The position numbers and the translations under genes are program-made. DNA of 64,000 bases, from the NCBI GenBank assembly GCA_963814875.1, contig CAWFFJ010000018.1, positions 333,611 to 397,610 of the forward strand, given 5' to 3'. Below are positions 2,499 to 31,496 of the stretch, in pieces; within the stretch, counting starts at the first letter, position 1; each line of letters starts with the position of its first letter. Source of the stretch: an uncultured Acidobacteriota bacterium. Its GTDB lineage: Bacteria; Acidobacteriota; Thermoanaerobaculia; Thermoanaerobaculales; Sulfomarinibacteraceae. Under the pieces are notes generated by a model. The model was given only the letters and a program-made list of their open reading frames with translations, made no database searches and was not told where the DNA came from.

Positions 2499-4124
2499 TC
2501 AGGAGTCCGATGACGAATCGGCAGTCGGCGCCTGAGCGTCGAACGGCCCGGAGGCCGAAACCTCGGAGGGCACCGCGGTGACCGGCAACACGACGGTGAA
2601 GGTGGAGCCCTCCCCCACCTTACTTTCGACCCGGAGGAACCCGCCCAGCTTGCGCACGATGCCCTGAGAAACGGACAGGCCGAGACCGGTCCCTCTGCCC
2701 TTGGGCTTGGTGGTGAAGAACGGCTCGAAGACACGCGGCAAGACGTGCTCCGGGATGCCCGGCCCGTTGTCACGGACGTCGACTGAGAGGTAGCCCTCCT
2801 CGCGATCAGGATGGACCGAGATCGAGATTCTCCCGTGCTCGGGGACGACGTCGAGCGCGTTGATGATCAGGTTGACGAAGACTTGGGTGAGCATCTGACG
2901 ATCACCGTGGATCGGCGGCAGGGTTTCGGGCACCACGACCTCGAGGCGGGCGCGGGCCATCCGCACCTGGTTGGCGACCAGCTGGACGGCCTCATTGACG
3001 ATGCGGCCGACGTCGAGAGGTTCGATCCTGGTCTCGCTCTCGCGAGCGAAGTCGAGCAGGTTGCGCACGATCTTCCGGGAACGCTCGGTCTCGGACAGGA
3101 TGTCGCGGACCATCTCCAGCGTCTCGCCGGCCTCGAGGGTGGCAAAGTCCTCCTCGATCATCGCCGCGGTGAGCATGACGTTGTTGAGAGGGTTGTTGAG
3201 CTCGTGGGCAACGCCGGCGACCAGGGTTCCAATCGCCCGTAGCTTGTGCGACTCCACCAGGATCCGCTGGCGGTACTCGAGCTCGCGCACCATCCGGTTC
3301 AGGGCCAGCGCGAGCTCGGAGAACTCGTCGCGGTACCTGCGAGCCGGCATGATCGGCGTGAAGTCGCCGGCACCGATCCGGCGGGTGTAGTCGGTGAACC
3401 GCTGCAGCACCGTGATCAGCTGGTGTGCGAAGAACACGCCAATGACGACGCTGAGCACCAGCACCGCGGCGAGGAAGACGAAGGGCATCCGGCGTGCAAG
3501 CCTGAGCATCCGGTGGATGGCCTCCCGCTCCTTGGCGCGGAACTCCAGGGCCATCGACACCATCTGGGCGCCGCTGCGACGCAGCTCCGCCTCGACGCCC
3601 TTCTTGACCGCCTCGTCGCGGACCTCGCCAAGCTGCTCGAGCTCCGAGCGGTAGTCCTTCGCGTGGCGCCGCATGGTCGCGAGCCCGTTTTCACCGACGA
3701 CCTTGCGGACACGGTCTTCGCCCTCGTCGAGGAGAGTGACGGCGTTGTCGAGGTGCTGAATCGCGTCTTCGAGATTGGTCCCATAGAGCAAGAAGTTCTT
3801 CTCGTACCGACGCGCCTCCTGGACCTCACTGCCGTAGCTGTCCGCAACCTCGAGGAAGTGGATCCGGTCCTCGACATCGGAGAGTGCGTACATTGACCAC
3901 AGGGTGATGATCACGCACAGCGAGAAGATCAGTCCGAGCGCGACGGTCAGCCGGGCGCGGACGGTCACTGTGGGGCGTCGCAGCAGCGCGACGTCGAATG
4001 CGTCGGTTCGATCGTCGTCCCCCGCCGACCACCCCATCGCCTCCTCGGACGTTAGGACGCCGGCAAGCGTCGGCGGCGCCTTCTCCAGACTGTCGGCGCT
4101 CGTCCTCTGCGCCGAGTCGGTCAC
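2499..4124 (-). CDS. sensor histidine kinase (2 TM, helical sensor domain, HAMP, HisKA, HATPase_c)
   Basis: H-box [17 protein letters not shown]-like [31 protein letters not shown] boxes [25 protein letters not shown] start at 4124 lies one nt after the TGA of the upstream receiver gene. Confidence 0.9.
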
Positions 4125-4125
4125 C

Positions 4126-4533
4126 TCAGCCCCCGGATGGTCGCGGTTGGAGAGAGCTCGCAGCCTTCTCGATCACGGCCCTGAGGTCTTGCGGCTTGAA
4201 CGGTTTGGCGATGAAGTCGAAGGCGCCCTTGGCGAGCGCCTCATGAGCCAGCTCGACGGTGGCGTACCCGGTGATCAGGATGACTCTGGTCCGCTGGGAC
4301 ATCGTCTGCACCGCCTCGAGCACCTGGATGCCGTCGACGTCGTCCATCCTCACGTCGGTCACCACGATGTCGAACTCGTGTTCGCCGAGACGTGCCAGCG
4401 CAGCCCTGGCGTCCTCGAAGACCTCGATCCGATGCCCTTCTTTCTCCAGTGCGGGCTTCAACCGCTTGCCGACGATCGGCTCGTCATCGAGCACCAGGAT
4501 GTCGAGCTTGCTGCCCATGGCCTGCCTCCCCAC
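4126..4533 (-). CDS. response regulator, receiver domain only (no output domain)
   Basis: ILVLDDEP, phospho-acceptor context VVTDVRMDDVDG, ILITGYAT, KPFK. About 135 aa with no room for an effector domain. Confidence 0.9.
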   Translation of the reverse strand: MGRQAMGSKLDILVLDDEPIVGKRLKPALEKEGHRIEVFEDARAALARLGEHEFDIVVTDVRMDDVDGIQVLEAVQTMSQRTRVILITGYATVELAHEALAKGAFDFIAKPFKPQDLRAVIEKAASSLQPRPSGG

Positions 4534-4686
4534 AGTTCACCCCGACGCCGCGGAACGCTCGTCCCGCTGCGTCACCGTCCGCTGGTTCGCGCCGACCCGA
4601 CTCGAACGCGCCCCCAAACCGATGACCACACCGCCAGTCGCCTCGGAGAGCGTCCGCTGGAGCCCGCGGGTGCGGCGCGGAAGCCC

Positions 4687-5793
4687 TCACACAGGAGCCT
4701 GCTCGACTCGACCCACCGAGAGGCTCTCCCGAATCTTGCGCCTCTCGAAGAAGGCCCGGAACACGAAGTAGAGAATGATCGCCGTGCCGCCGATGCCGCT
4801 CACGTAGAGCAGCCCCTTGCTGACGGCCTGGAACAGCGTGTCATAACCGGGGTCGAAACGGATCAACCCCAACTTGCGCAGGTACACCGGGGTCGCGACC
4901 AGACGCGAGATCACGCAGAGCAGGATGATGACCGCCGTTGCGAGACGGATCACGACCTCCTTGACCACCTTCGTACCGTAGGCTCCGATGTGGATCCCGA
5001 TCAGAGAGCCGAGGAAGAGCAGCATGGTCAGGCGCAGGTCCACCATGCCCTCCAGGGCGTAGTTGAGCGCGCCGAACGCGCCCATGAACATCGCCAGGTA
5101 GAGCTCACTCCCGGCGGCGACCTGGGCCGACACGCCGAAGACATAGATCATCGCAGGCACTCCGATGAAGCCGCCGACGCCGATCGTCCCGGCGAGGTAC
5201 CCGGTGGCGAGCCCGCAGATCATGACCACCCACAGCGACACCCGGACGTCGGCGACCGGGAAGTAGATCATCGGGTGGAGTCGAAAACGGTTGAGGAAGT
5301 CGACGATCTTCCGCGACGGCCCAAACTCGCCTTCGGCACGGCGCGAGCTCACGATGTCGCGCAGCATCGAGACCGACACCACAGCCAGTATGACGACGAA
5401 CACGACGCTGATGTACAGGTCGGCCCCGGCGCCCCGCGCGGTGGAGTGACTGTCGCCCCCGTCCTGGAACATCAGCTTCATCACCCAGACGGCGAGCCGG
5501 ATCCCGATCGCCGCGGTGGCCAGCATGAAGACCGACAGCTTCTTGTCCACGTGGCCCATTTGGCCGTGCCGCCGTGACCCGACCAACGCTTTGCCGAACT
5601 TGTGGGTGATGTTGGAGCCGACCGCGATGGGTCCCAGCACACCCAGGTTCATCATCCCGGGCGTCATGAAGAAGGCGCCGCCGCTGCCGATGAACCCGCT
5701 CAGCACACCGCCGATGAAGCCAAGCATGACGACCTGAGCTGCAGTGGACCAACTCAGGTGAATGAAGAGTCCCAGGATCGCGTCCGGTTGCAT
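4687..5793 (-). CDS. TauE/SafE (DUF81) family anion permease, long form
   Basis: Polytopic membrane protein with duplicated TauE signature GFIGSGGAFFMTPGMM and GTIGVGGFIGVPAMIY. GAGGGAGGGG RBS precedes ATG 5793. Confidence 0.85.
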   Translation of the reverse strand: MQPDAILGLFIHLSWSTAAQVVMLGFIGGVLSGFIGSGGAFFMTPGMMNLGVLGPIAVGSNITHKFGKALVGSRRHGQMGHVDKKLSVFMLATAAIGIRLAVWVMKLMFQDGGDSHSTARGAGADLYISVVFVVILAVVSVSMLRDIVSSRRAEGEFGPSRKIVDFLNRFRLHPMIYFPVADVRVSLWVVMICGLATGYLAGTIGVGGFIGVPAMIYVFGVSAQVAAGSELYLAMFMGAFGALNYALEGMVDLRLTMLLFLGSLIGIHIGAYGTKVVKEVVIRLATAVIILLCVISRLVATPVYLRKLGLIRFDPGYDTLFQAVSKGLLYVSGIGGTAIILYFVFRAFFERRKIRESLSVGRVEQAPV

Positions 5794-5835
5794 GCCGTCC
5801 CCTCCCTCACCACCAGATCGTCGCCGCCGTGCAGA

Positions 5836-7341
5836 TCACTCGAATCGCGCCAGCCGCAGCAGGTTGTGCGCCGCGGTACCCCACAGATAGGCGATCAGCG
5901 GTGCGGTCAGGGTGACCACGGTCACCGCCAGCGCCCGCTCCGTCGTGCCCTCGCTGCGCAGGAAGGCGAGCAGCTCCTCCTGGTGGGTGAAGGTCACGAG
6001 GTAGAGGAGAGCCGTGAGACCGCCCGTCGCGAGCAGCTGGAGCCACTGCTTGGCGCCGAACAGGTAACGGGTCTTGAGCTCCTCCGCCCCGATCACTGGC
6101 ACACGGAGTCGCTCCCCGAGACGGCTGGCGAGGTCCCGGGTCAGGCGCTTGCGAATCGCCTCGCCCCGGCTCAGGAAGAGCTCGTCGACGACGACGAGGC
6201 TCACATTGGCGACATTGCACAGGCTGCCGATCAGGGACTGCTGACCGCCGCACACGCTGCATTGGGCGCCTGCCCTGCCGGCTTGGATCAGGCGGTGAAC
6301 GGTTTGCCGCACGCCACCGTCGTCGCTCTCCGAGGCCATCACCCCGGCATCGTCGAGGATCCCGCCGTCTCCCCCGGACAGGCTCGGTGCAGCCTCGGCC
6401 ACCACCGGGTCGACCGCTTCTGCTCCGTCCGCCTCGGGCAGCAGTCGCACCACGTCGATCGCTGCGTCCCAGCGTCCCGCCAGATCGAGCAGGCTGGCCA
6501 TGGTCGCCGACTCCGGATCGAAACGCTCCTGGACCCACAGAATGGTCGATGCGGCGACCGTGCACCGCAGCTGTCGGATCTCCGCGACCCCCGAGAGCAC
6601 CTCGCCGACCGCTTCGGCGATGGTGGACTGCCGTGGCGGGTAGGTGACCGACACGCTCCCGATCTCCGCGCGCACCTGAGCGTTGAGGTCCCGGGTCCGC
6701 GGGTCGTCGGCAAGAACCAGCCGGCACCTTGCGGCGAGCAGCAGGTTCTCGAGACGGCGCTCCCCGGCCGGCGTCGCAGTGAACTCCGGGAGCTGTGCCA
6801 TCGACACCAGTGCGGTCGCGATGTTGGCGACCGTCAGCTTCGAGCAGTTGACGGTGAGGTTGAACAGTGACGGGTCGTTGATGTCGAGGTCGTACATCGT
6901 CCGGATCCACCGCCGGATGTCATCATCGACCTGACTGACGTACTCCTTCGCCTTCTCGCGGCTGAGATGGAGGCGGTCCACCACCCCGTCGTAGCGGTCC
7001 TCAACATCGGTCAGCGCGCGGACGCGCAGGATGTGCTGGACCCCCGGCAGCACCAGGTGGCCGGCTCGCCCGTGGTACACGAGCGGGGCCTCCAGAACGC
7101 GCTCGCACAGCGTCATGGTCACGAACGCCTTGTAGCGTTCAGCCAGCAGTCCGAGCGCCTCGGTGAGGGGCCGCCGCTTGACCACCGCTTCCTCGAGCTT
7201 CCCGACCGGGATACCGTGCTGGGTTGCCGCCTCGATCACATCCTCGCGGCTGAGGCAACGGCACCCCAAGCAGTCGGCCAGGCGCTCGGCGAGCTCACGC
7301 CCCCGCCTGTAGCTCCCGCGTGACACGAAGATCGTCTGCAT
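5836..7341 (-). CDS. cytidylate-kinase-like family protein, degenerate P-loop, C-terminal membrane anchor
   Basis: N-terminus IFVSRGSYRRGRELAERLADCLG, plus HILRVRALTDVEDR and LSREKAKEYVSQVDDDIRRW, resembles the Cytidylate_kin2 family but lacks GxxGxGK[ST]. Two C-terminal hydrophobic helices (WLQLLATGGLTALLYLVTF, ALAVTVVTLTAPLIAYLWG). Start set to ATG 7341, which is preceded by GGGAGGGAGG; the ORF opens at 7377. Confidence 0.7.
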   Translation of the reverse strand: MQTIFVSRGSYRRGRELAERLADCLGCRCLSREDVIEAATQHGIPVGKLEEAVVKRRPLTEALGLLAERYKAFVTMTLCERVLEAPLVYHGRAGHLVLPGVQHILRVRALTDVEDRYDGVVDRLHLSREKAKEYVSQVDDDIRRWIRTMYDLDINDPSLFNLTVNCSKLTVANIATALVSMAQLPEFTATPAGERRLENLLLAARCRLVLADDPRTRDLNAQVRAEIGSVSVTYPPRQSTIAEAVGEVLSGVAEIRQLRCTVAASTILWVQERFDPESATMASLLDLAGRWDAAIDVVRLLPEADGAEAVDPVVAEAAPSLSGGDGGILDDAGVMASESDDGGVRQTVHRLIQAGRAGAQCSVCGGQQSLIGSLCNVANVSLVVVDELFLSRGEAIRKRLTRDLASRLGERLRVPVIGAEELKTRYLFGAKQWLQLLATGGLTALLYLVTFTHQEELLAFLRSEGTTERALAVTVVTLTAPLIAYLWGTAAHNLLRLARFE

Positions 7342-7679
7342 GCGCCTCCCTCCCAACCGTGACTGCGGGATCCGCACGCACTCCGACGGGAGTCCGCGTC
7401 AACTCCGATCCGAGCCGACGGCGCGATCCGCTCCTGTCACAGAGGCATGCGGCCATGTCAAACCCATCGTATGCAAGAAACCGATCACCGCAGGAACCGA
7501 GAAAACTGCTGTCCACGCACATCTGGAGAAGAGACCGCGAACGGTAGCGAGTGAAGCTCGTAACCTGTTGTGGCATGGTGTTACGTCTGTGTAACCCCGG
7601 AGTACCTGCCCGAAGTGACCGGGCTCGCCCGGCTCGGCGGTGGGCCTCGAGTCCTGACCCCAGGTGAGCCGCCATCGTC

Positions 7680-8054
7680 CTAGCCGTCGTCTCCTGCAAT
7701 CCTCAGCACGAGGTCGCGAAGCTGGCTGATCTTGAAGGGCTTGGGAAGAAAGTCGACCGCGCCTCCCTTCAGAGCCTCCCGAGCCGTCTCGACCGTGGCG
7801 AAGCCGGTAATGATGATCACCTTGGTGTCCATGGTCTGCTCGCGGACGAAGCGCAGCACGTCGAGACCATCCGGCTTCCGCATCTTCAGATCGGTGATGA
7901 AGATGTCGAAATGCTCGCGGGCGAAGCAGTCGATCGCTTCCTGGCTGTCGGTGAAGGTCTCGACGCTGAAGCCGACCTTCTCGAGAGCGGGTCGAAGCCG
8001 ATCGCAGACAATGGCCTCGTCGTCAAGGATGATGATTCGCTTTTTCGCCTTCAT
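7680..8054 (-). CDS. response regulator, receiver domain only
   Basis: IIILDDEA, FITDLKMRKPDG, IIITGFAT, PKPFK. CAGGAGGG RBS precedes ATG 8054. Confidence 0.9.
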   Translation of the reverse strand: MKAKKRIIILDDEAIVCDRLRPALEKVGFSVETFTDSQEAIDCFAREHFDIFITDLKMRKPDGLDVLRFVREQTMDTKVIIITGFATVETAREALKGGAVDFLPKPFKISQLRDLVLRIAGDDG

Positions 8055-8139
8055 CGCCGCCCTCCTGCCGCGCCGATCCGCTCGTCCCCGGACGGCCGGT
8101 CCGACTTCGGAAGCAAGACCACCTCACCCGAGTCCCCGG

Positions 8140-8538
8140 TTACGAGGATGCCCGCCGAGCCAGCCGCTCCGCCTTCTTGGCCGCTTTCTTCACCATCGAC
8201 CCGACCGCTTCGAGGCGGAAGGGCTTGGAGACGAAGCCGTAGACCCCACTGTACTCGGCCTCTCGCTCCGACTCGATGGTGGCATAACCGGTCACGATGA
8301 TCACCTGGGTTGCCGGGCTCGTCCTGCGGACGTGGTGCAGCACGTCGAGGCCGTCCGGGGCCTTCATCTTGAGATCGGTGACGACTACGTCGAACGACTT
8401 CTCGGTCAGCCGGGCGACCGCTTTTTCGCTCTCGGTGTACGTCTCGACATCCAGCCCCTGCTTCTTTAAGTGGTCGCGCAGTCGATTGCAGACAATCTCC
8501 TCGTCATCGATGACCATCACCTGACCGTTTCGGTCCAT
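8140..8538 (-). CDS. response regulator, receiver domain only
   Basis: VMVIDDEE, VVTDLKMKAPDG, IIVTGYAT, SKPFR. Start set to ATG 8538 (GGGGAGGG RBS); the ORF opens at 8616 but would then overlap the upstream gene. Confidence 0.85.
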   Translation of the reverse strand: MDRNGQVMVIDDEEIVCNRLRDHLKKQGLDVETYTESEKAVARLTEKSFDVVVTDLKMKAPDGLDVLHHVRRTSPATQVIIVTGYATIESEREAEYSGVYGFVSKPFRLEAVGSMVKKAAKKAERLARRASS

Positions 8539-8567
8539 GACACCCTCCCCGAGCCGCTGCTCACGGA

Positions 8568-11129
8568 TCAACATGAGAACAAGTCGTAGTGACCGGACAT
8601 GAAGTTGTCGAAGCACCTGTCGACGACCGCGTCGTCGTTGAGCATGATGTCCAGCTGGCGCGTGAAACCTATCAATCGCCCTACCATTTCCATCCGCTTG
8701 TGGATCGCCTCGGCAGAGATCTTCTTGATCCGACCGATCACGAGATCGCCGCTTCCCTCGACCACGAAGTCATTCGTCTCCAGGATGCGTTGCAGCAGGA
8801 CGGCTCGTCGCGACCGCCGCGTGAGCTCGGTGACGCCGCCGGTGAAACGGAAGTAGATGTAGTTGTCGTTGCGGTTGGTGCCCAGGTAGCAGTCAACGAT
8901 GTTGAAGTGGAAGCCGAGCCGCAGGCTGAGGTTGAGGTACTCGCGGGAAGCGATCGCCAGGTTGATCTGTGGACGGCTCGCGGCGGGCCCCAGCCACGGT
9001 GCAGAGCGGGTGGCGCTGGCCATGAACGCGTTGGCGTCCATCTGCGCCGGAGCGGTCACCCAGACTCCCTTCGCGGTCAGACCGTCGAGCAGCGACCGCA
9101 GGGGCGCGGACACGACGCTCTCCGGCTGGATCGTCTTGTGCTCGTCGCTCGAACTCACCGCTCCCCCGATGTCGATCAGCACCAGGTCGAGCGGAACCGT
9201 GAGGGCCAGCCGCCGCACGTAGCGGTTGCGCACCGAGGGATCGACCCAGGTTCCCTCGGACAGCTCTCGGACCGCCATCTCGTGAGCGAATCGGATGATG
9301 TCGTGGTACGTGGAGCAACTCGCGGCCGTGAAGTCGCGGGATTGCGGGTCCCGGAGGTTGAGAGGGGCGACCTTCTTGAACATCCTCCGCAGGAGCCTGA
9401 ACTCTTGCGACTCCTCGAAGGTCGAGCTGCGCAGGAGCTGGTGATCCAGCAGCGCCTTGACCTTTCCTCGGTAGACGACGTTGGCCTCGGCATCGACCGT
9501 GACCTCATCGCCGTCCTGCAGAACCTGGGTGGCGATGCCGGTGTCGACGATCGCCGGCACCCGGAACTCGCGAGCAATGGCGGCGAGGTGTCCGGTCGAG
9601 GTGCCGACGTCGGTCACCACGGCGGACGCATGGGCCAGAACCGCGGCCAACCTCGGCGACGAGGTCCTCGCGACGAGCACCGGATCCGCCGGAAGGTCCT
9701 TCATCGAGTCGTCGTCGATGACCACCCTGACCCGACCGTACCCGATGCCGTTGCACGCGACAGTGCCGCGACCGCTGAGCAGCACCGGAAAGCGGCCGAC
9801 GATCTCGGTGACGTCGCTGGCGCTGGGCACCGCGTGCCGCTCGATTCGCAGCGGCCTGGCCTGCAGGATGACCAGCTCCCCTCGCTCGTCGATGGCCCAC
9901 TCGACGTCCACCGCACACTTCATGCTCTTCTCGATCTGCAGCGACACGGCGGCCAGCGTGGCGAGCTGGGCATCCGAAACCGCGGGCTGCGACCTCGCCT
10001 GCTCGCCGATCTCGGCCAACTCGACACCGCGGCCGCTGCCCTGGACCAGCATCATCAACTTGGTCGCGACGTGGCGCGAAACCACCTCGTGGGGGGCCTG
10101 TCTCGCAATCTCGAACCGGTCCACCGGCTGGCTTCCCTCGACCACCGTCTTGCCCAGGCCGCGCGCGGCCGAGACTGTCATCAGGTTGGCCTCGGGACGC
10201 GTCGGGATCAGGCTGTGCAGCACACCGCCCGCCCGCGCCGGCACCATGCACAGGCAGCCCACCGCCATCAGGCCACGGGCCGGGTGGAGGTTGTGGCTCT
10301 GCCGGTACCTCATCACCCCGGTGGAGTAGAGGCTTGCGAGGACCTCCTTGTAGGCCTCCACCACGCCGTCTGCCGGCACCCCGAGCACGGTCGTGAACTG
10401 GCCCGCGAAGCTGAGCTCACTGTCCTCGCCGAGCGCGCTGCTGCGCACTGCGAAGCTGCTGCAGCCTGAGCGCTTTTCGAGGCGTGCCGCCTCCCGAGCG
10501 ATCGCGCGTTGCAGATCACGCGGCAGCTTGAGGCCCAGGACCCGAGTCCTGAGCTCCGCAGAGGCGGCCTCGAACATCGCCTCGTCGAACAGCTCCGGCT
10601 GGGCGAAGGTGCGCTCGACGTAGCGGTCGATGCGCGCCTCCATGAGCAGGTGCTGGCAGGCATAGGTCGTGATGACGAAGCCGGCGGGGACACGACACCC
10701 GAGCCGCTTCTCGATCGCAGCCAGCCGGGCCATCTTCGCTCCGGCGACGTCGGTGAGATCTTCGTCGATGTCGGCGAGCGGAATCACGTAATCCGTCGTG
10801 CCGACGATGACCTTGGACTCGTAGATGTTGTGGACGTCCTCAGCGATCCTGCGCAGGGTATCGACGAGCTCAGGGTAGCGGTTGCCGGTCACCCCGTTGA
10901 GGTCGTAGACCACGCCGCGGACAGCGTTCTCCAGATCGCGTGCGAGCGTCTTCAGGTACTGGCTGTCGAACACATACTCGCCACCCAGCATCTCACCGGC
11001 CCCAGCGATCAACTCCAGGACCTGGTTGTTCTTGTCGACCAAGTCGCGAAAGTGCTCCAGCCGTTCTCGAAGGACGGCGAACGCGTCCTTGCCTTCCCTG
11101 AGTCGCCGCAGCCACTTCCAGAAATTCAC
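8568..11129 (-). CDS. PEP/pyruvate-binding (PPDK_N-type ATP-grasp) plus swivel phospho-histidine domain protein with a non-canonical C-terminal domain
   Basis: The N-terminal region after about 110 aa looks like the PpsA/PPDK nucleotide-binding domain (VRSSALGEDSELSFAGQF). The mobile His domain reads VVTDVGTSTGHLAAIAREFRVPAIVDTG. The last ~290 aa (STFEESQEFRLLRRMFKK ... FMSGHYDLF) do not resemble the PEP-utilizers_C TIM barrel. GTG start. Confidence 0.85.
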   Translation of the reverse strand: MNFWKWLRRLREGKDAFAVLRERLEHFRDLVDKNNQVLELIAGAGEMLGGEYVFDSQYLKTLARDLENAVRGVVYDLNGVTGNRYPELVDTLRRIAEDVHNIYESKVIVGTTDYVIPLADIDEDLTDVAGAKMARLAAIEKRLGCRVPAGFVITTYACQHLLMEARIDRYVERTFAQPELFDEAMFEAASAELRTRVLGLKLPRDLQRAIAREAARLEKRSGCSSFAVRSSALGEDSELSFAGQFTTVLGVPADGVVEAYKEVLASLYSTGVMRYRQSHNLHPARGLMAVGCLCMVPARAGGVLHSLIPTRPEANLMTVSAARGLGKTVVEGSQPVDRFEIARQAPHEVVSRHVATKLMMLVQGSGRGVELAEIGEQARSQPAVSDAQLATLAAVSLQIEKSMKCAVDVEWAIDERGELVILQARPLRIERHAVPSASDVTEIVGRFPVLLSGRGTVACNGIGYGRVRVVIDDDSMKDLPADPVLVARTSSPRLAAVLAHASAVVTDVGTSTGHLAAIAREFRVPAIVDTGIATQVLQDGDEVTVDAEANVVYRGKVKALLDHQLLRSSTFEESQEFRLLRRMFKKVAPLNLRDPQSRDFTAASCSTYHDIIRFAHEMAVRELSEGTWVDPSVRNRYVRRLALTVPLDLVLIDIGGAVSSSDEHKTIQPESVVSAPLRSLLDGLTAKGVWVTAPAQMDANAFMASATRSAPWLGPAASRPQINLAIASREYLNLSLRLGFHFNIVDCYLGTNRNDNYIYFRFTGGVTELTRRSRRAVLLQRILETNDFVVEGSGDLVIGRIKKISAEAIHKRMEMVGRLIGFTRQLDIMLNDDAVVDRCFDNFMSGHYDLFSC

Positions 11130-11162
11130 ACTCGCCTCGGCTCATTCCTCCCCGGCATGGAG

Positions 11163-11768
11163 TCAGTGGGCCTTCTTCGATCCCAAACCGAAGACAACGC
11201 CGGTCAGGAGTCCGACCACGATCGCCACCATGACGGCCAGGATGCCGAACAACAGGCCGTGTTGCCGTGACAGGTCGGAGATGAAGGCGGCCAGGCCGAC
11301 CGTCCGGACCGTGAACGCTCCGGTCGCGAGTCGTGTTCCGCTGTCGCCGTCAAACCCCACCAGTGACACCTCGTAGGGGCCGAAGGGTGCCTTCGCCGGC
11401 AGCCAGAACTCGGTCGACACACGTTCAAGACCGCCATCGAGCGGCTCGACGTGGATGCCGGTCGCCGAAACTCCGAACAGACCCTCCCGCTGCTTGAGCT
11501 TGATGAGCTCACCCAGGAGCCTGCGAGTCGCCTCGTCCCCGGGATCCGGAGCCACCCTGGACTCGACCGCGCCAAAACCCACTCCCAGGTCCGCGAGCAC
11601 GGTCGGCGAGGCGAGGCTCTCGAGCGGACGGGTCGAGACGACGCAATAGAATCCCGGTACTTTCTCCAGACTTGCTTCACCGACGTTCATCCACAGGAAG
11701 CCCCAGACCCTGCCCTTCTGCTTCAGGTCGGACCCCACTCTCCCGACCCGCACAGACGACGACGACAT
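11163..11768 (-). CDS. Alph_Pro_TM / TIGR02186-like membrane protein, C-terminal two-thirds
   Basis: KQKGRVWGFLWMNVGEASLEKVPGFYCVVSTRPL and a C-terminal TM helix LLFGILAVMVAIVVGLLTGVVFGL match my recollection of that family. The ATG at 11768 lies inside a GTC-repeat shared with the upstream fragment. Confidence 0.7.
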   Translation of the reverse strand: MSSSSVRVGRVGSDLKQKGRVWGFLWMNVGEASLEKVPGFYCVVSTRPLESLASPTVLADLGVGFGAVESRVAPDPGDEATRRLLGELIKLKQREGLFGVSATGIHVEPLDGGLERVSTEFWLPAKAPFGPYEVSLVGFDGDSGTRLATGAFTVRTVGLAAFISDLSRQHGLLFGILAVMVAIVVGLLTGVVFGLGSKKAH

Positions 11769-11958
11769 CGCCCTGCGAAGGCACCGTCGCGTCCACCCGG
11801 ACCATCGTACCGTGGTAGAGCATCGTCACCGGGACCTCGACCGGATCGATGTGGAGCGAAACAGAGGCTGCGGGCTCGGACGGAGGCACGGCAAACGCCG
11901 CCGGTGCGGTCAGCACGCAGGACAGGACGACGATGGAAAGTCGAAGTGTGGGGGCCAT
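11677..11958 (-). pseudogene. N-terminal fragment (signal peptide plus first ~70 aa) of the same Alph_Pro_TM-like protein, separated from its C-terminal part by an apparent 1-nt frameshift
   Basis: Signal peptide MAPTLRLSIVVLSCVLTAPAAFA. The frame ends ..GDVVVV then CAGRES..stop. Shifting by one nt after GTCGTCGTCGTC (around nt 11754) continues as VRVGRVGSDLKQKGRVWG in the 11163..11768 frame. Confidence 0.5.
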
Positions 11959-11961
11959 GGC

Positions 11962-12888
11962 CTAGTGACCCCCCGCGTACGCTACCAGGATGTCCGGTGT
12001 GAGGACCAGGCCGAGGAGCATCTTGCCCATCACGACGAGCACGATGATCGCCATCATGATCTTGAGCTGATCGGCATTGAACCGCCGGCTCGCGCGAGCG
12101 CCGATCTGGGCGCCGATCACGGAGCCGATCAGGAGGATCAGGGCAAGAACGAAGTCCACCGTGTGGTTCACCGCGGCTTGAAGCACGGTCACGTTCATGC
12201 ACGTGAAGAGGATCTGGAAGAGGCTGGTACCGACGACCACATGCATCGGCATCCGCAGCAGATAGACCATGACCGGTACCATGATAAAGCCACCGCCGAC
12301 CCCCATGATCGCGGCCAACGTGCCGACCATCGTCCCCAGCGCGAGCGGCATCAGCACCGAGAGGTTCACGTTCGAGCGCGGAAAGCTCATCTTCCAGGGA
12401 AGGCTGCGCACCAGCCGCGCATAGAGCGAGGGGCCGGCACCGACGTCGTCCGTGTCGCGCCGGGTTCCCCTGAGCCCACCGAGGCTCTCGACGAACATGT
12501 AGCTCCCGATCCCGCCGAGCATCACCACGTAGGTCACACTGATCAGGAAGTCGGCCTGGCCGAGGGCGCGCAGCAGCTTGATCAGCCACACCCCGACCGA
12601 CCCGCCGAGGAGGCCTCCGAGCAGCAGCAGCACCCCCATCTTGAAGTCGACGGAACCGGCCTTGGCGTGGGCGTACGACCCGGAGGCCGAAGCGGCCACG
12701 ATCTGGTTCGAGTCGGAGGCCGCGGCCACGGTTGGTGGGATCCCGATCATCATCAGCAGCGGAGTCATCAGAAACCCGCCTCCGACCCCGAACAGACCCG
12801 AGAGGAAGCCGACCAGGCACCCCAACGAGAGCAGGAGGAAGATGTTGACCGAGTTGCCCGCCACCGGAAGGAAGATAGAAAACTCCAT
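11962..12888 (-). CDS. TauE/SafE (DUF81) family anion permease
   Basis: MEFSIFLPVAGNSVNIFLLL.., signatures GLFGVGGGFLMTPLLM and AIMGVGGGFIMVPVMVY. Start set to ATG 12888, 10 nt after the upstream kinase stop; the ORF opens at 13152 inside that kinase. Confidence 0.85.
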   Translation of the reverse strand: MEFSIFLPVAGNSVNIFLLLSLGCLVGFLSGLFGVGGGFLMTPLLMMIGIPPTVAAASDSNQIVAASASGSYAHAKAGSVDFKMGVLLLLGGLLGGSVGVWLIKLLRALGQADFLISVTYVVMLGGIGSYMFVESLGGLRGTRRDTDDVGAGPSLYARLVRSLPWKMSFPRSNVNLSVLMPLALGTMVGTLAAIMGVGGGFIMVPVMVYLLRMPMHVVVGTSLFQILFTCMNVTVLQAAVNHTVDFVLALILLIGSVIGAQIGARASRRFNADQLKIMMAIIVLVVMGKMLLGLVLTPDILVAYAGGH

Positions 12889-12898
12889 ACCGTCTCCT

Positions 12899-14437
12899 TC
12901 AGCCCGCGGTCCCATGTCGCTTGGCGCTGCCGGGTAGAAAGACCGAGAACGTGGTTCCCTCGCCGACCTCGCTCGCGACCGTGATCCGTCCGCCGTGCCG
13001 CTCGACGATCCCGAAACTGACCGCAAGGCCGAGGCCGGTGCCGTGGCCCGGTTCCTTGGTCGTAAAGAAGGGATCGAAGACCTTGTCGAGATCCTCCGGA
13101 GGGATGCCGATGCCGGTGTCGGCGACATCGACGCGCACGCCGCCCTCCTCATCCCGAACCGCCCGGACCGTGAGCGTCCCGCCCTCCGGCATTGCCTGGA
13201 CGGCGTTCAGCAGGAGGTTGAGGAACACCTGCTGGAGGTGCCTCGGGTTGGCCGGCACCGGCGGCAGATCGTCGTCGATCTCACGCTCGAGCTCGACCTG
13301 ACCGATCGCGAGCTCGTTGCCGAGCAGGTTGAGCGTGGTCTCCAGCACCTCTCCCACGGCGACCGACGTCATCACCGGATGGTCGTTGCGCGTGAAGTCG
13401 AGCAGGCTGCGAACGGTCGCGCTGGCGCGTTCCACCTGCGCGTAGATCTCGTTGAGCATCGTCAGCTTGGTCTCGTCGGAGTAGTCCTCGAAGCTCTCGA
13501 TCAACGACTCGGTGGTGAGCCCGATGTTGTTGAGCGGGTTGTTCAGCTCGTGGGCCACTCCCGACGTCAAGGTCCCGACCGCCGCCATCTTGCCGGCCTG
13601 CAGCAGCTGCTCCTGGCGGCTCTTCAGCTCCTGGAGCATCTGGTTGACCGCGACCGCCAGCTCCGAGAACTCGTCGCGGAACCTGCGCGCCGGCCGCACC
13701 GGCGAGTAATCGCCGGCACCGATTCTGGAGGCGTAGGCCACGAACCGACCCAGGGGCGCCACCACCGCGTGGGACATGAGTGCGGCCAGGAATCCCATCA
13801 CCACGACCATGATCAGAAGGAACGCAACCGCCACCACCATGGAGGTGCGCAACATCGCGTGCATCGAGAGGCGCTGGCGATCGACCATGTCCTCCGCCTC
13901 GGAGAGGATGCGTGAACCCGCCGTTCGCAACTGGGTCTCGATCGATCGGTACTCGGCGCTGTGCCGGTCGCCGTCCGGCCCCATCGAGGCGTCGAGCGTG
14001 TACAGCAGGTCCTGGTAGGCAGCCAGGTCCGCTTCGATGGCACTGAACCGTTCGTCACCCATCACCGACCTGAGCTCGTCGGCACTTTTCTCGAACTCGC
14101 TCTGCGCGGTGTGGATGTTGGCCAGGGCGTCCGTCAGGTTGGTCCCATAGAGGAAGAAGTTCTTCTCGAACCGGCGCGCCTGCTCGATCTCGAACAGGGA
14201 GTTCCCGGCTTTCTCGAGGAACTGCAGGTTCTTGGCGACGCCGGAGACGAAGACGACCGCCGCCACCGTAATCGCGGCCATGAACACGAACAGGAGGACG
14301 AAACCCGCCACAATCCGCGACCGAATGCTGATCCGAGGCCGCTCGAGGATCGCCCGCGTCGTCTCGACATCCTCATCCGAGAGGCGAAGCGCCTTCGCCT
14401 GGGCGACATCGTCGGACCGCATCCCGTTCTCGGTCAT
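12899..14437 (-). CDS. sensor histidine kinase (paralog of 2499..4124): 2 TM, helical sensor, HAMP, HisKA, HATPase_c
   Basis: [57 protein letters not shown]. Shares the sensor motif EQARRFEKNFFLYGTNLTDA with the other kinase ([19 protein letters not shown]). Start ATG 14437 chosen; the ORF opens at 14617. Confidence 0.85.
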   Translation of the reverse strand: MTENGMRSDDVAQAKALRLSDEDVETTRAILERPRISIRSRIVAGFVLLFVFMAAITVAAVVFVSGVAKNLQFLEKAGNSLFEIEQARRFEKNFFLYGTNLTDALANIHTAQSEFEKSADELRSVMGDERFSAIEADLAAYQDLLYTLDASMGPDGDRHSAEYRSIETQLRTAGSRILSEAEDMVDRQRLSMHAMLRTSMVVAVAFLLIMVVVMGFLAALMSHAVVAPLGRFVAYASRIGAGDYSPVRPARRFRDEFSELAVAVNQMLQELKSRQEQLLQAGKMAAVGTLTSGVAHELNNPLNNIGLTTESLIESFEDYSDETKLTMLNEIYAQVERASATVRSLLDFTRNDHPVMTSVAVGEVLETTLNLLGNELAIGQVELEREIDDDLPPVPANPRHLQQVFLNLLLNAVQAMPEGGTLTVRAVRDEEGGVRVDVADTGIGIPPEDLDKVFDPFFTTKEPGHGTGLGLAVSFGIVERHGGRITVASEVGEGTTFSVFLPGSAKRHGTAG

Positions 14438-14880
14438 CGCCGTCCGTCCCGTCGAAGCACTCCGTTCCGAGCCCGCATTCCCCAGCACATCACGTCGCGA
14501 GGGCGTTGAGATGGAAGTTCTGTGCCAGCGTGAGAATGCCGCCGCAAGTCCTTTCCGCCGTCGGACAGCCCCGTGGCAACGCAGTCGCAGTCCTCGTACG
14601 TAACGGTGCGGTAACACCCAGGGCTACACTGCAGTCCTCTTCGTGACGCACGCATCTCCGGCTCTCGTCCTGGTCCTGCTGCCGAGGCCCGCCCTCTGCG
14701 GCTGAGCAGCCGGCCGGACCTGGATCCAGGCCAACCGCGCGCAGCCCGACTTCGAGGCACGGGCGTCTCGAATCTGAGGCGGCGTCGGACCCACAGGGAT
14801 GAACCGATTCTCAGCCCACGCGCTGGCCATCGAATTGGGGACCTGCACAAGTGAACCGGGAGCAAACCCAGCTCACAAGC

Positions 14881-15273
14881 TCAGGTGGACGGCGCCTCCG
14901 CCGCCAGATCCTCTGCGGCCCGCGCAACGATCGCACGCAGGTCCTCGGGCCGGAAGGGCTTCGCAATGAAGTCGAAGGCACCCTTCAGCATCGCCTCCCG
15001 GGCGACCGACATCATGGCGTAGCCAGTGATCAGGATGACTCTGGTCCGCGGCGATCGCTCCCGGACCCGCTCGAGCACCTGAATGCCGGTCATTTCATCC
15101 ATCCGGATGTCAGTGACCACGACATCGAAATCAGTCTCGGCAAGCCGGTCGAGGGCGCGTCGCGGATCCTCGAAAATCTCGACCTCCCAGCCCATCTTGG
15201 CAAGCGCCGGCTTCAGTCGCTTGCCGACGATCGGCTCGTCATCGAGAACCAGAACCCGCAGAGCATCAGTCAT
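14881..15273 (-). CDS. response regulator, receiver domain only (close paralog of 4126..4533)
   Basis: VLVLDDEPIVGKRLKPAL, VVTDIRMDEMTG, ILITGYAM, AKPFR. GGGGAGG RBS precedes ATG 15273. Confidence 0.9.
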   Translation of the reverse strand: MTDALRVLVLDDEPIVGKRLKPALAKMGWEVEIFEDPRRALDRLAETDFDVVVTDIRMDEMTGIQVLERVRERSPRTRVILITGYAMMSVAREAMLKGAFDFIAKPFRPEDLRAIVARAAEDLAAEAPST

Positions 15274-15366
15274 CGCGACCTCCCCAGGTCGATGTCGGAG
15301 CCGTTCAGGACCGCCCCCCAGACCTCATGGCCAGCACTCCACTGCACCCCGCACCACGGCCGCCGC

Positions 15367-16191
15367 TCACCGGAAGCTGTCGATCGCTTCCCGAATGAAA
15401 TCATCGAGCACGTTGACCTCGACCCCATCAGCCCCCTCGACCGAGCTCAAGAGCTGCTCGATCGACGCCGCCACGGACTGCTGCTCTCGCCTCACCGAGG
15501 TGATCTCGACGGTGATCCTGCCATGCAAGGCCTGGACCCTCGCCTCCGGGTAGCGCTCGATGAGGGCGACCCGGGCCCGAGCCTCCAGCGCAACATCCTG
15601 GAGTCGGGCGCGTGAGTAGGTCATCGCCTGGAAGCTGCGCTCGCCGGCCGTGTCCGCAATCATGCCGACGGCCCGCTCGGGCTCGATCTGTTGGAGCCGG
15701 ATGACCAAGTCGTACAGCGACGGATCGGTTTCGTCCCTCCCGAATGCCGCCAGCGACCAGCGCCTGCGGCCCGCGATCTGTCGCAATCTCACCCGTTCAG
15801 CCTTCTCGACCGAAACCCCTCGCCGCTGGGCGAGCTGTCGAGCCATCGCCGCGCTGTCGGCAAGTACGCGCACTTTGAGCACGTGAGAGACCCCTGCAAC
15901 GTACAGGTGCGCCGCGAGACCGTGACAGACGACGTCATCCGCGAGCAGCTTGTCAACGACGACAGTTTGAATCGACGCCAGGCGCCGGGCTCTCGATCCG
16001 GCGGTCATCCCGAGCAGGGAAGGGTCATCGTCGAGCGACCGCAGCAGTCGAGCTCCGTCGATGCCGAAACGCTCCGCCACCGCGCCGAGGAGCTCCCGCC
16101 CGACGAGACGGAATCCAAGCCGACCGGCGACTCCCTCGGCGATCTCACGACCCGTGGTGAGGGAATCCGACGACAGGATCACGACGGGCAT
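15367..16191 (-). CDS. cytidylate-kinase-like family protein, degenerate P-loop, soluble short form
   Basis: VVILSSDSLTTGREIAEGVAGRLGF, HVLKVRVLADSAAMARQLAQRRGVSVEKAERVRLRQIAGRRRW, DPSLYDLVI. Parallels 5836..7341 but has no TM segment. Start ATG 16191; the upstream 133 codons of the ORF are low-complexity. Confidence 0.7.
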   Translation of the reverse strand: MPVVILSSDSLTTGREIAEGVAGRLGFRLVGRELLGAVAERFGIDGARLLRSLDDDPSLLGMTAGSRARRLASIQTVVVDKLLADDVVCHGLAAHLYVAGVSHVLKVRVLADSAAMARQLAQRRGVSVEKAERVRLRQIAGRRRWSLAAFGRDETDPSLYDLVIRLQQIEPERAVGMIADTAGERSFQAMTYSRARLQDVALEARARVALIERYPEARVQALHGRITVEITSVRREQQSVAASIEQLLSSVEGADGVEVNVLDDFIREAIDSFR

Positions 16192-28492: not shown

Positions 28493-29872
28493 CTACCGGG
28501 TGTATTGCTCGTCAAGCCCAAACTTGGCCAGCCGATACAAGAATGTCTTGTAGCTCAGGCCGAGCAGGCGGGCCGCGCTGGCACGGTTGCCGTCGGCGAG
28601 CTCCAGAGCCTGCCGCAGCAGGTCCTCCTCCATCTCGTCCCAAGCAACCCCCGATGGCGGCAGATGGAATGTTCCCCTTCCGGACGAGGTGGCCGCCCCG
28701 ATCTCGGGTGGCAGGTCGTCGGCGCTCACTCGGCCGTCCTCGGCGAGCAGCACCAGCCGTTCGAGGGCATTGGCGAGCTCCCGCACGTTGCCCGGCCAGG
28801 TGTGCTCCATCAGCCGACGCAGCACCGCCTGCGGCAGTTGCTGGGCGACGGTGGCATGGCGCTCGGCGGCCCGACGGACGAGCACATTGGCCAGAGCAGG
28901 AATGTCCTCCCGGCGCTCACGTAGAGGTGGGAGCCGAACCGGGAACACGTTGAGTCGATAGTAGAGATCCTCGCGGAAGCTACCCTCCGCCACCATGTCC
29001 GCAAGGTCCCGGTTGGTCGCGGCCACAACCCGCGCGTCACAGGCGACCTCGCCGGTACCACCGAGACGGGTCACCCGTCGCTCCTGGAGGGCGCGCAGGA
29101 CCTTCGCCTGGAGGGCAAGCGGCATCGATGCCACCTCGTCGAGGAAGAGGGTCCCTCCCGACGCCTCCTCGAACTTGCCCTCACGGCGTCGGTGGGCCCC
29201 GGTGAACGCGCCGCGCTCGTGGCCGAACAGCTCGCTCTCCATCAGCGACTCGGGAATCGCGGCGCAGTTCACGGCGACGAAGGGACCGCCGCTGCGCCGG
29301 CTGCGGCGGTGGAGCATTCTCGCGACCAGCTCCTTGCCGGTCCCGGACTCACCCGTCACCAGCACCGTCGCCTCGGTGTCGGCGACCTTTTCGAGCGTCC
29401 GATAGAGCTGCTGCATGGCCGGAGTGCGACCAATGATCTCGCCGTAGCCGTCCCTGACCTCGGCCTCCGCGCGCAGACGCAGGTTTTCCCGCTCGAGCTC
29501 CCGGGTCCGCAACACCCTCTGCACGGCGAGCAGGAGCGCCTCGCGTTCGAACGGCTTCGCCAGGTAGTCGGCAGCTCCACGCCGCACCGCCTCGACTGCG
29601 TGCGCGATCGAGCCATAAGCGGTCATCACGATCACCGCGGATGGAATACCTCGCCCTCGCAGCTCGTCGAGCAGGTCGCCGCCCGTGCGGCCCGGTAGTC
29701 TCCAGTCGCTCAGCACCACGTCAGGAAAATCATCCTCGATCGCAGTCAGGGCAGCGTCGACATCCGGCGCGCTGCGCACGTCGTAGCCACTGCGGGTGAG
29801 GATCCCGGCAATCAGCTCGCGCTGTGCTGCCTCGTCCTCCACGACCAGCACCGTGGCGGGAGGGGTGCTCAT
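28493..29872 (-). CDS. sigma-54-dependent response regulator (NtrC/ZraR/AtoC class: REC, AAA+, Fis-type HTH)
   Basis: VLVVEDEA, LSDWRLPG, Walker A GESGTGKE, sigma-54 contact loop ERGAFTGA, C-terminal NRASAARLLGLSYKTFLYRL. Confidence 0.95.
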   Translation of the reverse strand: MSTPPATVLVVEDEAAQRELIAGILTRSGYDVRSAPDVDAALTAIEDDFPDVVLSDWRLPGRTGGDLLDELRGRGIPSAVIVMTAYGSIAHAVEAVRRGAADYLAKPFEREALLLAVQRVLRTRELERENLRLRAEAEVRDGYGEIIGRTPAMQQLYRTLEKVADTEATVLVTGESGTGKELVARMLHRRSRRSGGPFVAVNCAAIPESLMESELFGHERGAFTGAHRRREGKFEEASGGTLFLDEVASMPLALQAKVLRALQERRVTRLGGTGEVACDARVVAATNRDLADMVAEGSFREDLYYRLNVFPVRLPPLRERREDIPALANVLVRRAAERHATVAQQLPQAVLRRLMEHTWPGNVRELANALERLVLLAEDGRVSADDLPPEIGAATSSGRGTFHLPPSGVAWDEMEEDLLRQALELADGNRASAARLLGLSYKTFLYRLAKFGLDEQYTR

Positions 29873-31374: not shown

Positions 31375-31496
31375 CAGGACCTCCGGAGCCGCCGGCGTGG
31401 AGGGCGCCACGCCGGCCGGCTCGTGTCTACAGTAGCAACCGCCATGCCACCTGGTGCGATGCTATTCTTCTCGTCCCGAATGCTGCGGGAGGCGAC

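Follow-up and report, generated by a model that had tools for sequence, protein, structure and literature searches.

A putative two-component-controlled permease system, widespread among bacteria, with a mis-annotated phosphoenolpyruvate synthase-like enzyme family at its core

Introduction

The closest described system to the gene cluster analyzed here is the "nitrate cluster" of Desulfovibrio (DVU0251-DVU0245 and Dde_0597-Dde_0605), reported by Korte et al. 2014 (PMC4001038). Our cluster lies at positions 2499-16191 of a 64,000-nt stretch of contig CAWFFJ010000018.1 (assembly GCA_963814875.1) from an uncultured Acidobacteriota bacterium; we call the whole stretch the window. It encodes two membrane histidine kinases (HK) with a HAMP domain, four proteins that consist of a receiver (REC) domain only, two permeases of the TSUP/TauE family, an Alph_Pro_TM protein, two cytidylate kinase-like (CK-like) proteins and an 853-aa enzyme that resembles phosphoenolpyruvate (PEP) synthase in part. 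Judging from sequence comparison, the locus is a widespread, probably two-component-controlled permease system built around a mis-annotated enzyme family.

The nitrate cluster contains genes for a TauE permease, a small hypothetical protein, a PtxB-like protein, a HAMP/PAS kinase, a REC-only protein, a protein with PPDK_N and mobile domains and a phosphatase (PMC4001038). Cells became resistant to 100-150 mM nitrate when any one of four genes carried an insertion, namely those for the permease, hypothetical protein, receiver and dikinase-like protein, and mutants of D. alaskensis G20 had a mild growth defect on thiosulfate (PMC4001038). A leaky thiosulfate transporter was proposed by these authors (PMC4001038). 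By composition our cluster resembles the nitrate cluster, in that a TauE permease with an adjoining small protein, a HAMP kinase, a REC-only protein and a PPDK_N/mobile-domain protein occur together. Unlike ours, the nitrate cluster has a PtxB-like periplasmic binding protein and a tyrosine/dual-specificity phosphatase, neither of which is among the window's 12 genes; its kinase has PAS domains, its dikinase-like protein has 744 aa, and CK-like genes are absent from it. No D. vulgaris or D. alaskensis protein was among the 120 best Alph_Pro_TM matches to a Desulfovibrionaceae query, and DVU0246 (dikinase-like) and DVU0250 (small protein) did not appear in the match lists examined. The two clusters are loosely similar and related in composition; the comparison is one of gene content. 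An earlier reading of this DNA, made by a model from the letters and their open reading frames (ORFs) and called here the sequence-only reading, knew of no described system of this composition. The published nitrate cluster, a relative in composition with a phenotype but no mechanism, qualifies this.

A possible second relative comes from a 2026 proteomics study of Dissulfuribacter thermophilus. Three proteins with consecutive locus tags were more abundant there when thiosulfate was disproportionated: TauE, a "transmembrane protein co-occurring with TauE" and a "PEP synthase", the last of which was the most strongly induced, with a log2 fold change of 3.4 (PMC13490349). This protein, A0A1B9F8F1, is tagged DITHS69_1988 in the table of the study and DITHS69_1161 in the text, and its adjacency to the TauE pair depends on the table tag (PMC13490349). 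We infer orthology to the Desulfovibrio and Dissulfuribacter proteins from gene order only.

Results

Twelve genes in two related units

Twelve consecutive minus-strand genes fill positions 2499-16191, as determined by a six-frame ORF listing, translation and Pfam scans. The Pfam assignments of all 12 products exceed the curated cut-offs. In transcription order the genes are:

15367-16191, minus strand: CK-like, a soluble protein of 274 aa (PF13189, 79.7 bits against a cut-off of 28)
14881-15273, minus strand: REC4, a receiver-only protein of 130 aa (PF00072, 101 bits)
12899-14437, minus strand: HK2, a membrane HAMP histidine kinase (HAMP, HisKA and HATPase_c; two hydrophobic segments)
11962-12888, minus strand: TauE2, a TSUP/TauE-family permease of 308 aa (PF01925, 169 bits)
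11163-11958, minus strand: Alph_Pro_TM, PF09608/TIGR02186-like (PF09608, 128.6 bits on the 3' part)
8568-11129, minus strand: dikinase-like enzyme of 853 aa (PPDK_N and PEP-utilizers by Pfam)
8140-8541, minus strand: REC3, receiver-only, directly after the enzyme (PF00072)
7680-8054, minus strand: REC2, a second receiver-only protein (PF00072)
5836-7341, minus strand: CK-like(TM), a membrane-anchored protein of 501 aa (PF13189, 82.9 bits)
4687-5793, minus strand: TauE1, a TSUP/TauE-family permease of 368 aa (PF01925, 120.8 bits)
4126-4533, minus strand: REC1, receiver-only, 130-135 aa with its start at 4533 or 4518 (PF00072, 103 bits)
2499-4124, minus strand: HK1, a membrane HAMP histidine kinase and paralogue of HK2 (HAMP, HisKA and HATPase_c)

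The spacers in the same order measure 93, 443, 10, 3, 33, 26, 85, 338, 42, about 153-168 and 1 nt, and three of the 11 are long enough for promoters. The sequence-only reading had given most spacers as 1-45 nt, which is true of six (45 nt or less) and wrong for the other five. Its gene count, strand and order agree with ours, and the profile hidden Markov model annotation that it had proposed as a check returned the expected families. The junctions that it quoted were right: TGA-G-GTG at 4128-4122, where HK1 starts 1 nt past the REC1 stop, and the 3-nt and 10-nt spacers on either side of TauE2. As it also stated, the four receivers (124-135 aa, PF00072 alone) have no output domain and no DNA-binding gene lies within the cluster.

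A related strain (locus L081), whose enzyme is 98% identical, carries the identical set of 12 genes. At one end its cluster borders 2-oxoglutarate dehydrogenase genes in the opposite orientation, at the other end cytochrome and alcohol dehydrogenase genes.

Pairwise comparison revealed two paralogous sets. REC1 and REC4 are 66% identical, HK1 and HK2 39% over the full length including the sensor, TauE1 and TauE2 32%, and the two CK-like proteins 29%. Because of these two sets, the locus reads as a composite of three blocks: CK-like and REC4; HK2, TauE2, Alph_Pro_TM, enzyme, REC3 and REC2; and CK-like(TM), TauE1, REC1 and HK1. The middle block is unit A. The last block together with CK-like and REC4 is unit B. 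The description as a single supercluster is thus correct for a contiguous array on one strand; the array is better seen as two related units with probably three or more transcription units.

Recurrence of the gene order across genomes

One genome per species was scanned (about 185,000 species representatives), and relatives of the enzyme were found in 282 species. Neighborhoods were counted in the best 80 of these 282 species, using loci with 10-kb flanks and mapping the window proteins onto six-frame ORFs. By automatic count, TauE, Alph_Pro_TM and the enzyme follow one another in 63 of the 71 loci with enough upstream sequence, or 69 of 71 when split hits are allowed. Immediately downstream of the enzyme, the automatic count placed a REC gene in 72 of 77 loci, and three of the five exceptions have split PEP hits with REC next. 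Another REC comes after it in 38 of 75 loci, as a rule those with CK-like genes as well; in 32 of 66, a CK-like protein is encoded a short way downstream. The anchored loci come from Acidobacteriota, Gemmatimonadota, Thermodesulfobacteriota, Myxococcota, Armatimonadota, Elusimicrobiota, Fibrobacterota and Gammaproteobacteria, and the same components occur in the same order in at least 8 phyla. The nearest relatives of the window locus are from Acidobacteriota, at 89% and 73% identity.

On a Desulfobaccales contig (L086), the permease and a fusion of Alph_Pro_TM with a universal stress protein (Usp) domain (13667-14950) are convergent with a PPDK_N protein and a receiver, so the linkage outlasts changes of gene order. 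With Alph_Pro_TM as anchor, the cluster was also recovered from two cultured organisms, Solidesulfovibrio carbinoliphilus and Oceanidesulfovibrio marinus. When the 501-aa CK-like(TM) was the anchor, the order was CK-like(TM), TauE, REC and HK, followed by REC or by CK-like and REC. Unit B occurs alone in Latescibacteria and Myxococcota, where TauE, REC and HK follow CK-like(TM).

Because the components recur in fixed order across phyla, the grouping is not accidental. The sequence-only reading had treated these genes as a functional unit and would have given this up if they did not co-occur beyond chance in other genomes. With the enzyme and the CK-like proteins as anchors, co-occurrence exceeded chance. 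The near-fixed order in the 80 anchored genomes, the enzyme-REC fusions described below and the independent recurrence of the CK-like/TauE/REC/HK set all support such a unit.

The related loci are of two types. Type I loci are like the window, with the kinase within the operon. In type II loci, found in Syntrophobacteraceae, Desulfovibrionaceae and Desulfobulbaceae, a kinase of the same family is encoded divergently with a sigma-54 activator, and the operon holds a Usp-like gene, TauE, Alph_Pro_TM, the enzyme and REC plus two further full-length enzyme paralogues. The extra paralogues lie after the receiver, at 13092-18276 in L080, 13798-18719 in L084 and 13775-18690 in L085. In one of these type II paralogues an ATP-grasp domain could not be detected, so the enzyme may be hetero-oligomeric. 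The universal stress protein domain is part of the extended system; in Desulfovibrionaceae it forms its own gene before TauE (L080, 7569-8090; L084, 8636-9064).

The 853-aa enzyme is not PEP synthase

The enzyme consists of four parts:

aa 1-110: N-terminal helical domain, conserved among homologues
aa 128-432: ATP-grasp domain PPDK_N (PF01326, 226 bits)
aa 481-548: swivel phospho-His domain with T512-G-H514 (PF00391, 60.8 bits)
about aa 560-853: family-specific C-terminal domain

The motifs RSSAxxED and T512-G-H514 are unchanged among 21 homologues, and hundreds of full-length homologues of the protein exist. In 17 of the 120 best homologues a receiver is fused to the C-terminus at about aa 870-980, which gives the order ATP-binding domain, phospho-His domain and, last, receiver.

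Scores against the NCBIfam models were low. PEP_synth (TIGR01418) gave 277.8 against a cut-off of 739.75 and spanned profile positions 2-466 of 784; NF005057 gave 290.2 against a cut-off of 598. Sequence matches in the PDB end at about aa 563, with 28% identity to PEP synthase-type proteins over about 460 residues, a stretch that also gave a confident fold match. In an AlphaFold2 (AF2) model, the N-terminal two thirds matched PEP synthase (2ols), RPH, PPDK and the swivel domain of Enzyme I by Foldseek. The RPH ATP-grasp domain superposes on that of the enzyme at about 3 Å over 326 columns, and HpeI is a further structural relative of this domain by fold.

The remaining third is different. No Pfam family matched aa 560-853 or the N-terminal helical domain at E<=10, and PEP-utilizers_C (PF02896), the PEP/pyruvate TIM barrel, was not found in the enzyme even at E<=10. 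The AF2 model of the C-terminal domain, of moderate confidence (pLDDT 71.6), shows an antiparallel sheet with helices packed on it; Foldseek gave no match in the PDB better than E=0.07. More than 70 positions of the domain are invariant, among them those in C-x-T-Y-H-D-x5-H-E and FRFxGGxTE-xx-RRxRR. It occurs in 1393 clusters at 50% identity, according to an exhaustive profile search. In all of the 150 best listed matches it forms the C-terminal end of the protein, most of these proteins being about 850 aa long, and no homologue of the domain was found in the plasmid collection.

We therefore rejected PEP synthase as the identity of the 853-aa gene: the C-terminal PEP-binding domain is absent and the equivalog scores are far under the cut-offs. 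Homologues are routinely mis-annotated as gluconeogenic PEP synthase.

Receivers and kinases

The DD/D/T/K acceptor pocket is intact in the four window receivers. It is also present in essentially every receiver that follows the enzyme in the 80 loci, with one gap in an alignment column. Since the pocket is kept, the receivers of the system are probably meant to be phosphorylated. REC3 is orthologous to the receiver found fused to the enzyme C-terminus in other genomes. Across loci, the number of receivers roughly follows the number of CK-like proteins plus the primary enzyme.

All receivers of the system have a common alpha-1 signature, DDExxV(C/G)xRL, including the receiver domains of the type II sigma-54 activators. 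The signature is absent from unrelated receivers in the flanks and from an enhancer-binding protein at 28493-29872 of the window. Alpha-1 is the main surface by which receivers are recognized by kinases. The shared signature favors ordinary transfer from one dedicated kinase family to all receivers of the system.

The periplasmic sensor of HK2 is all-helical and contains the motif RRFEKNFFL; its HK1 counterpart is RRYEKNFLL. No Pfam family matched the sensor domain at E<=10. The pattern RR[FY]EKN[FYW][FL]L occurs in 50 of 92 HK hits across related loci, mostly in full-length kinases beside the system. The kinases of the system align to HK2 over nearly the whole length and form one orthologous family, and full-length HK2 orthologues adjoin the system in most related loci.

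At 28493-31410, on the minus strand, the window encodes a sigma-54 enhancer-binding response regulator (GAFTGA) next to a kinase of a different family. We rejected this enhancer-binding protein (28493-29872) as the activator of the cluster, as it has an unrelated kinase partner and lacks the alpha-1 signature. It is the only enhancer-binding protein in the window, and no cognate one is encoded in the cluster.

Permeases, Alph_Pro_TM and CK-like proteins

TauE1 and TauE2 both score above the PF01925 cut-off of 32.6 and have multiple hydrophobic segments. TauE1 is the longer type that pairs with CK-like(TM); orthologues of 364 aa follow CK-like(TM) in L082 and L083. A TauE gene directly upstream of Alph_Pro_TM is near-invariant in related loci.

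Alph_Pro_TM has a signal peptide, a periplasmic domain and a C-terminal transmembrane (TM) helix. Its PF09608 score compares with a cut-off of 24.5; TIGR02186 gave 78.9 bits against 255.25, measured on the 3' 201-aa part of a frameshifted gene and not on the whole protein. The frame shifts near 11740-11760, leaving a signal-peptide ORF at 11677-11958 and the remainder at 11163-11768. This was demonstrated by tblastn with the L001 orthologue, whose match splits over two reading frames. The gene is unbroken in L081 (264 aa) and in L001. The frameshift is either an assembly indel or a recent pseudogene. We found no literature on Alph_Pro_TM, TIGR02186 or PF09608.

CK-like(TM) has a CK-like domain at aa 1-170, unannotated middle and C-terminal regions and a hydrophobic anchor at about aa 440-490, with a hydrophobic segment located at aa 470-489. 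This 500-aa family is kept at full length across phyla with 43-50% identity. No Pfam family matched aa 180-501 of CK-like(TM) or the C-terminal region of the other CK-like protein at E<=10, and a PDB sequence search with CK-like(TM) returned 3hdt alone (E=0.04). The Walker A motif GxxxxGK[ST] is absent: the N-termini of the window proteins read SRGSYRRGRE and SSDSLTTGRE, and the family consensus is SRGSFxxGKE. The CMP kinase model TIGR02173 gave 19.9 against a cut-off of 102.1. A literature search on PF13189 found nothing relevant.

Spacer sequences and candidate promoters

Three candidate regulatory features were located in the two longest spacers:

14512-14527, minus strand: sigma-54-like promoter candidate TGGCACAGAACTTCCA (TGGCAC-N5-TTCCA, one mismatch)
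14600-14615, minus strand: a pair of GTAAC pentamers, 11 nt apart, that precedes the promoter candidate; a candidate regulator site
7560-7595, no strand assigned: palindrome GTTAC-N6-GTAAC at 7580-7595 and a GTAAC at 7560, upstream of CK-like(TM)

The promoter candidate TGGCACAGAACTTCCA lies about 75 nt upstream of HK2 in the 443-nt spacer. Its -24 element is perfect, and its -12 element is TTCC rather than TTGC. The block is kept in L001 and L081 although the surrounding spacer has diverged. A near-consensus TGGCAC-N5-TTGC, with 10-11 of 11 specified positions, is found upstream of the Usp-like gene or TauE in about a dozen type II loci.

Of 19 GTTAC/GTAAC pentamers in the 64-kb window, five fall in the two long cluster spacers, where about 0.2 are expected. 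The palindrome occurs once in the window against 0.02 expected, and the sites of both spacers are kept in L001. They are candidates for a common operator or upstream activating site. Their clustering would fit two or more co-regulated promoters better than a single transcript of 13.7 kb.

No RNA family was found in the spacers with Rfam. No sigma-70 consensus promoter was found in the region, and terminator-like sites were not above expectation. A conserved block upstream of CK-like(TM) was rejected by eye as a sigma-54 promoter, since it has GA and not GG at -24.

L081 carries a 232-nt insert in the REC4-HK2 spacer (about 6150-6385) with terminal inverted repeats GTGTCCTGTTTGG...CCAAACAGGACAC. 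The insert looks like a miniature transposable element. It is missing from the corresponding window spacer (14438-14880), and no copy of its repeat occurs elsewhere in the window.

Sulfur genes near related loci

In 12 loci, most of them from Gemmatimonadota, unit A has DsrK/HdrD-like genes as neighbors. Directly upstream of the kinase, a large Fe-S protein with Fer4_8 and CCG domains (DsrK/HdrD-like) is encoded in L009 (3938-6673), L027, L029, L034 and L045; a DsrK/HdrD-like protein is close by in L013, L017, L019, L020 (Acidobacteriota), L022, L023 and L025. In a Latescibacteria locus (L082, 106-7639), dsrAB-like and dsrMKJOP-like genes stand beside CK-like(TM), TauE, REC and HK.

Discussion

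We propose, with a confidence somewhat short of even, that the HAMP kinases phosphorylate the receivers, that the receivers act on neighboring effectors and that the effectors control or energize the TSUP permeases, possibly for a sulfur oxyanion. A signal in the periplasm would be perceived by the helical sensor domains of the two kinases, which would then phosphorylate the four receiver-only proteins of NtrC type. As these lack an output domain, they would act by contact with co-encoded cytoplasmic proteins: REC3 would contact the ATP-grasp/swivel-His enzyme, and the other receivers the CK-like proteins. The enzyme would autophosphorylate His514 from ATP, like PEP synthase; at its arginine-rich C-terminal domain, an acceptor other than pyruvate would then receive the phosphoryl group. 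The effectors would switch or energize anion flow through the two TSUP permeases and their membrane partners, Alph_Pro_TM and the CK-like anchor. Our best guess for the transported species is a sulfur oxyanion such as thiosulfate or sulfite.

Several points weigh against this proposal. Phosphotransfer, receiver-effector contact and substrate are all inferred. The alpha-1 likeness could reflect common descent rather than shared kinase specificity, and at some loci (for example L055, L056, L058 and L059) the kinase is not seen within 10 kb. The CK-like proteins have no canonical Walker A motif and no known activity. What ties the system to sulfur is a pair of studies on other organisms and a minority of neighborhoods; in the window nothing sulfur-related flanks the cluster, and the DsrK/HdrD-like protein is absent there. 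In D. vulgaris the kinase of the nitrate cluster is a pseudogene whose disruption has little effect, yet the receiver is required (PMC4001038).

The last point can also be taken in favor of the route suggested by the sequence-only reading, as the PPDK_N protein is required there too (PMC4001038). By that route, the swivel His514, charged by ATP, hands its phosphoryl group to the Asp of REC3 or of the fused receiver, so that two membrane kinases and a cytoplasmic ATP-grasp "kinase" converge on receiver-only proteins. A receiver adjoins the enzyme, the fused receiver is C-terminal as in hybrid histidine kinases, the acceptor pocket is complete in essentially all such receivers, and the loci without a nearby kinase still have enzyme and receiver. 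Receivers catalyze their own phosphorylation from phospho-imidazole donors, which also speaks for it. Against it, we know of no precedent for transfer from the swivel His of a PEP-utilizer to a receiver Asp. A dedicated family of canonical kinases co-occurs with the system, its receivers share the alpha-1 signature with the sigma-54 activators of that kinase, and the large, highly conserved C-terminal domain is left with no obvious role. We consider this transfer unlikely. It is similarly doubtful that the family of about 850 aa is a non-canonical analogue of a sensor kinase, with the C-terminal domain as a docking or regulatory platform.

The enzyme might instead be a true "X, water dikinase". 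Its C-terminal domain would bind the small anion or metabolite that TauE and Alph_Pro_TM move, and this molecule would be trapped or activated as a phospho-compound, while the receivers would only tune expression or activity. This overlaps with the kinase-receiver-effector proposal, with metabolism rather than gating as the central event. PEP synthase, PPDK, rifampin phosphotransferase and phenylphosphate synthase all move His~P to a small acceptor on a dedicated domain. The strand-GGxT-helix followed by RRxRR would resemble an anion or phosphate site, the enzyme gene comes directly after the permease pair, and the enzyme showed the strongest induction of the Dissulfuribacter trio (PMC13490349). 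On the other hand, the acceptor cannot be named, and no relative with a known function could be detected for the C-terminal domain. Three paralogues in related loci, one of them without a recognizable ATP-grasp domain, are odd for a simple metabolic step, and no metabolic genes are conserved downstream. We regard this metabolic role as improbable too. Far less credible is the ordinary annotation, by which the enzyme is a PEP synthase for gluconeogenesis and the signaling and transport genes are unrelated neighbors. JGI and NCBI sources do label homologues "pyruvate, water dikinase", and the N-terminal two thirds resemble PEP synthase in sequence and fold. This annotation is contradicted by the missing C-terminal PEP-binding domain, and also has against it the low equivalog score and the order with TauE, Alph_Pro_TM and REC, which is kept across phyla and accompanied by fusions.

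The system brings together three little-understood elements: TSUP/TauE permeases, for which most substrates are guesses; receiver-only regulators, which seldom have a known target; and a large family of PEP synthase look-alikes. Solving it could explain the nitrate-resistance locus of sulfate reducers and the induction seen in thiosulfate disproportionation. It would also correct a widespread annotation error and test whether a swivel-histidine enzyme feeds a two-component receiver. If the enzyme were a sensor-kinase analogue, a receiver-only network gating TSUP permeases would have a second, cytoplasmic entry, and this would be the first phosphorelay begun by a PEP-utilizer-type histidine. 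As Solidesulfovibrio carbinoliphilus and Oceanidesulfovibrio marinus are cultured carriers, the question is open to experiment.

Compared with PEP synthase and PPDK, the enzyme has the same domain order, an ATP-grasp domain followed by a swiveling phospho-His domain with T-x-H. However, an unrelated domain of about 290 aa replaces their C-terminal PEP/pyruvate TIM barrel, a 110-aa helical domain is added at the N-terminus, and the gene is linked to a permease pair and a receiver. RPH, PigC/RedH and phenylphosphate synthase likewise combine this ATP-grasp and swivel-His engine with a different acceptor module. In RPH and PigC the acceptor domain stands between ATP-grasp and swivel domains, whereas here it would be C-terminal; these acceptor domains are dissimilar to the C-terminal domain of our enzyme, and the locus has no antibiotic or pigment context.

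On the signaling side, HK1 and HK2 with HisKA and HATPase_c, and receivers with the full acceptor pocket, are those of two-component systems. The window receivers depart from the two-component norm in lacking an output domain, while type II loci do have a sigma-54 activator. The multiple single-domain receivers resemble branched or phosphate-sink relays, and the fused homologues end in a C-terminal receiver as hybrid kinases do. In contrast to hybrid kinases and phosphorelays, the modules in front of that receiver are of the PEP-utilizer type and not HATPase_c/HisKA, and no Hpt protein is present. Genes for sensor kinases are embedded among transporter genes here as in PhoR-PstSCAB-PhoU, BceRS-BceAB and DcuS-DctA, and signaling and transport are likely coupled at the membrane in the same way. 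In those systems the regulator is a transcription factor and the transporter a co-sensor, whereas the present system has output-less receivers, and TSUP permeases with Alph_Pro_TM and CK-like proteins as unusual partners.

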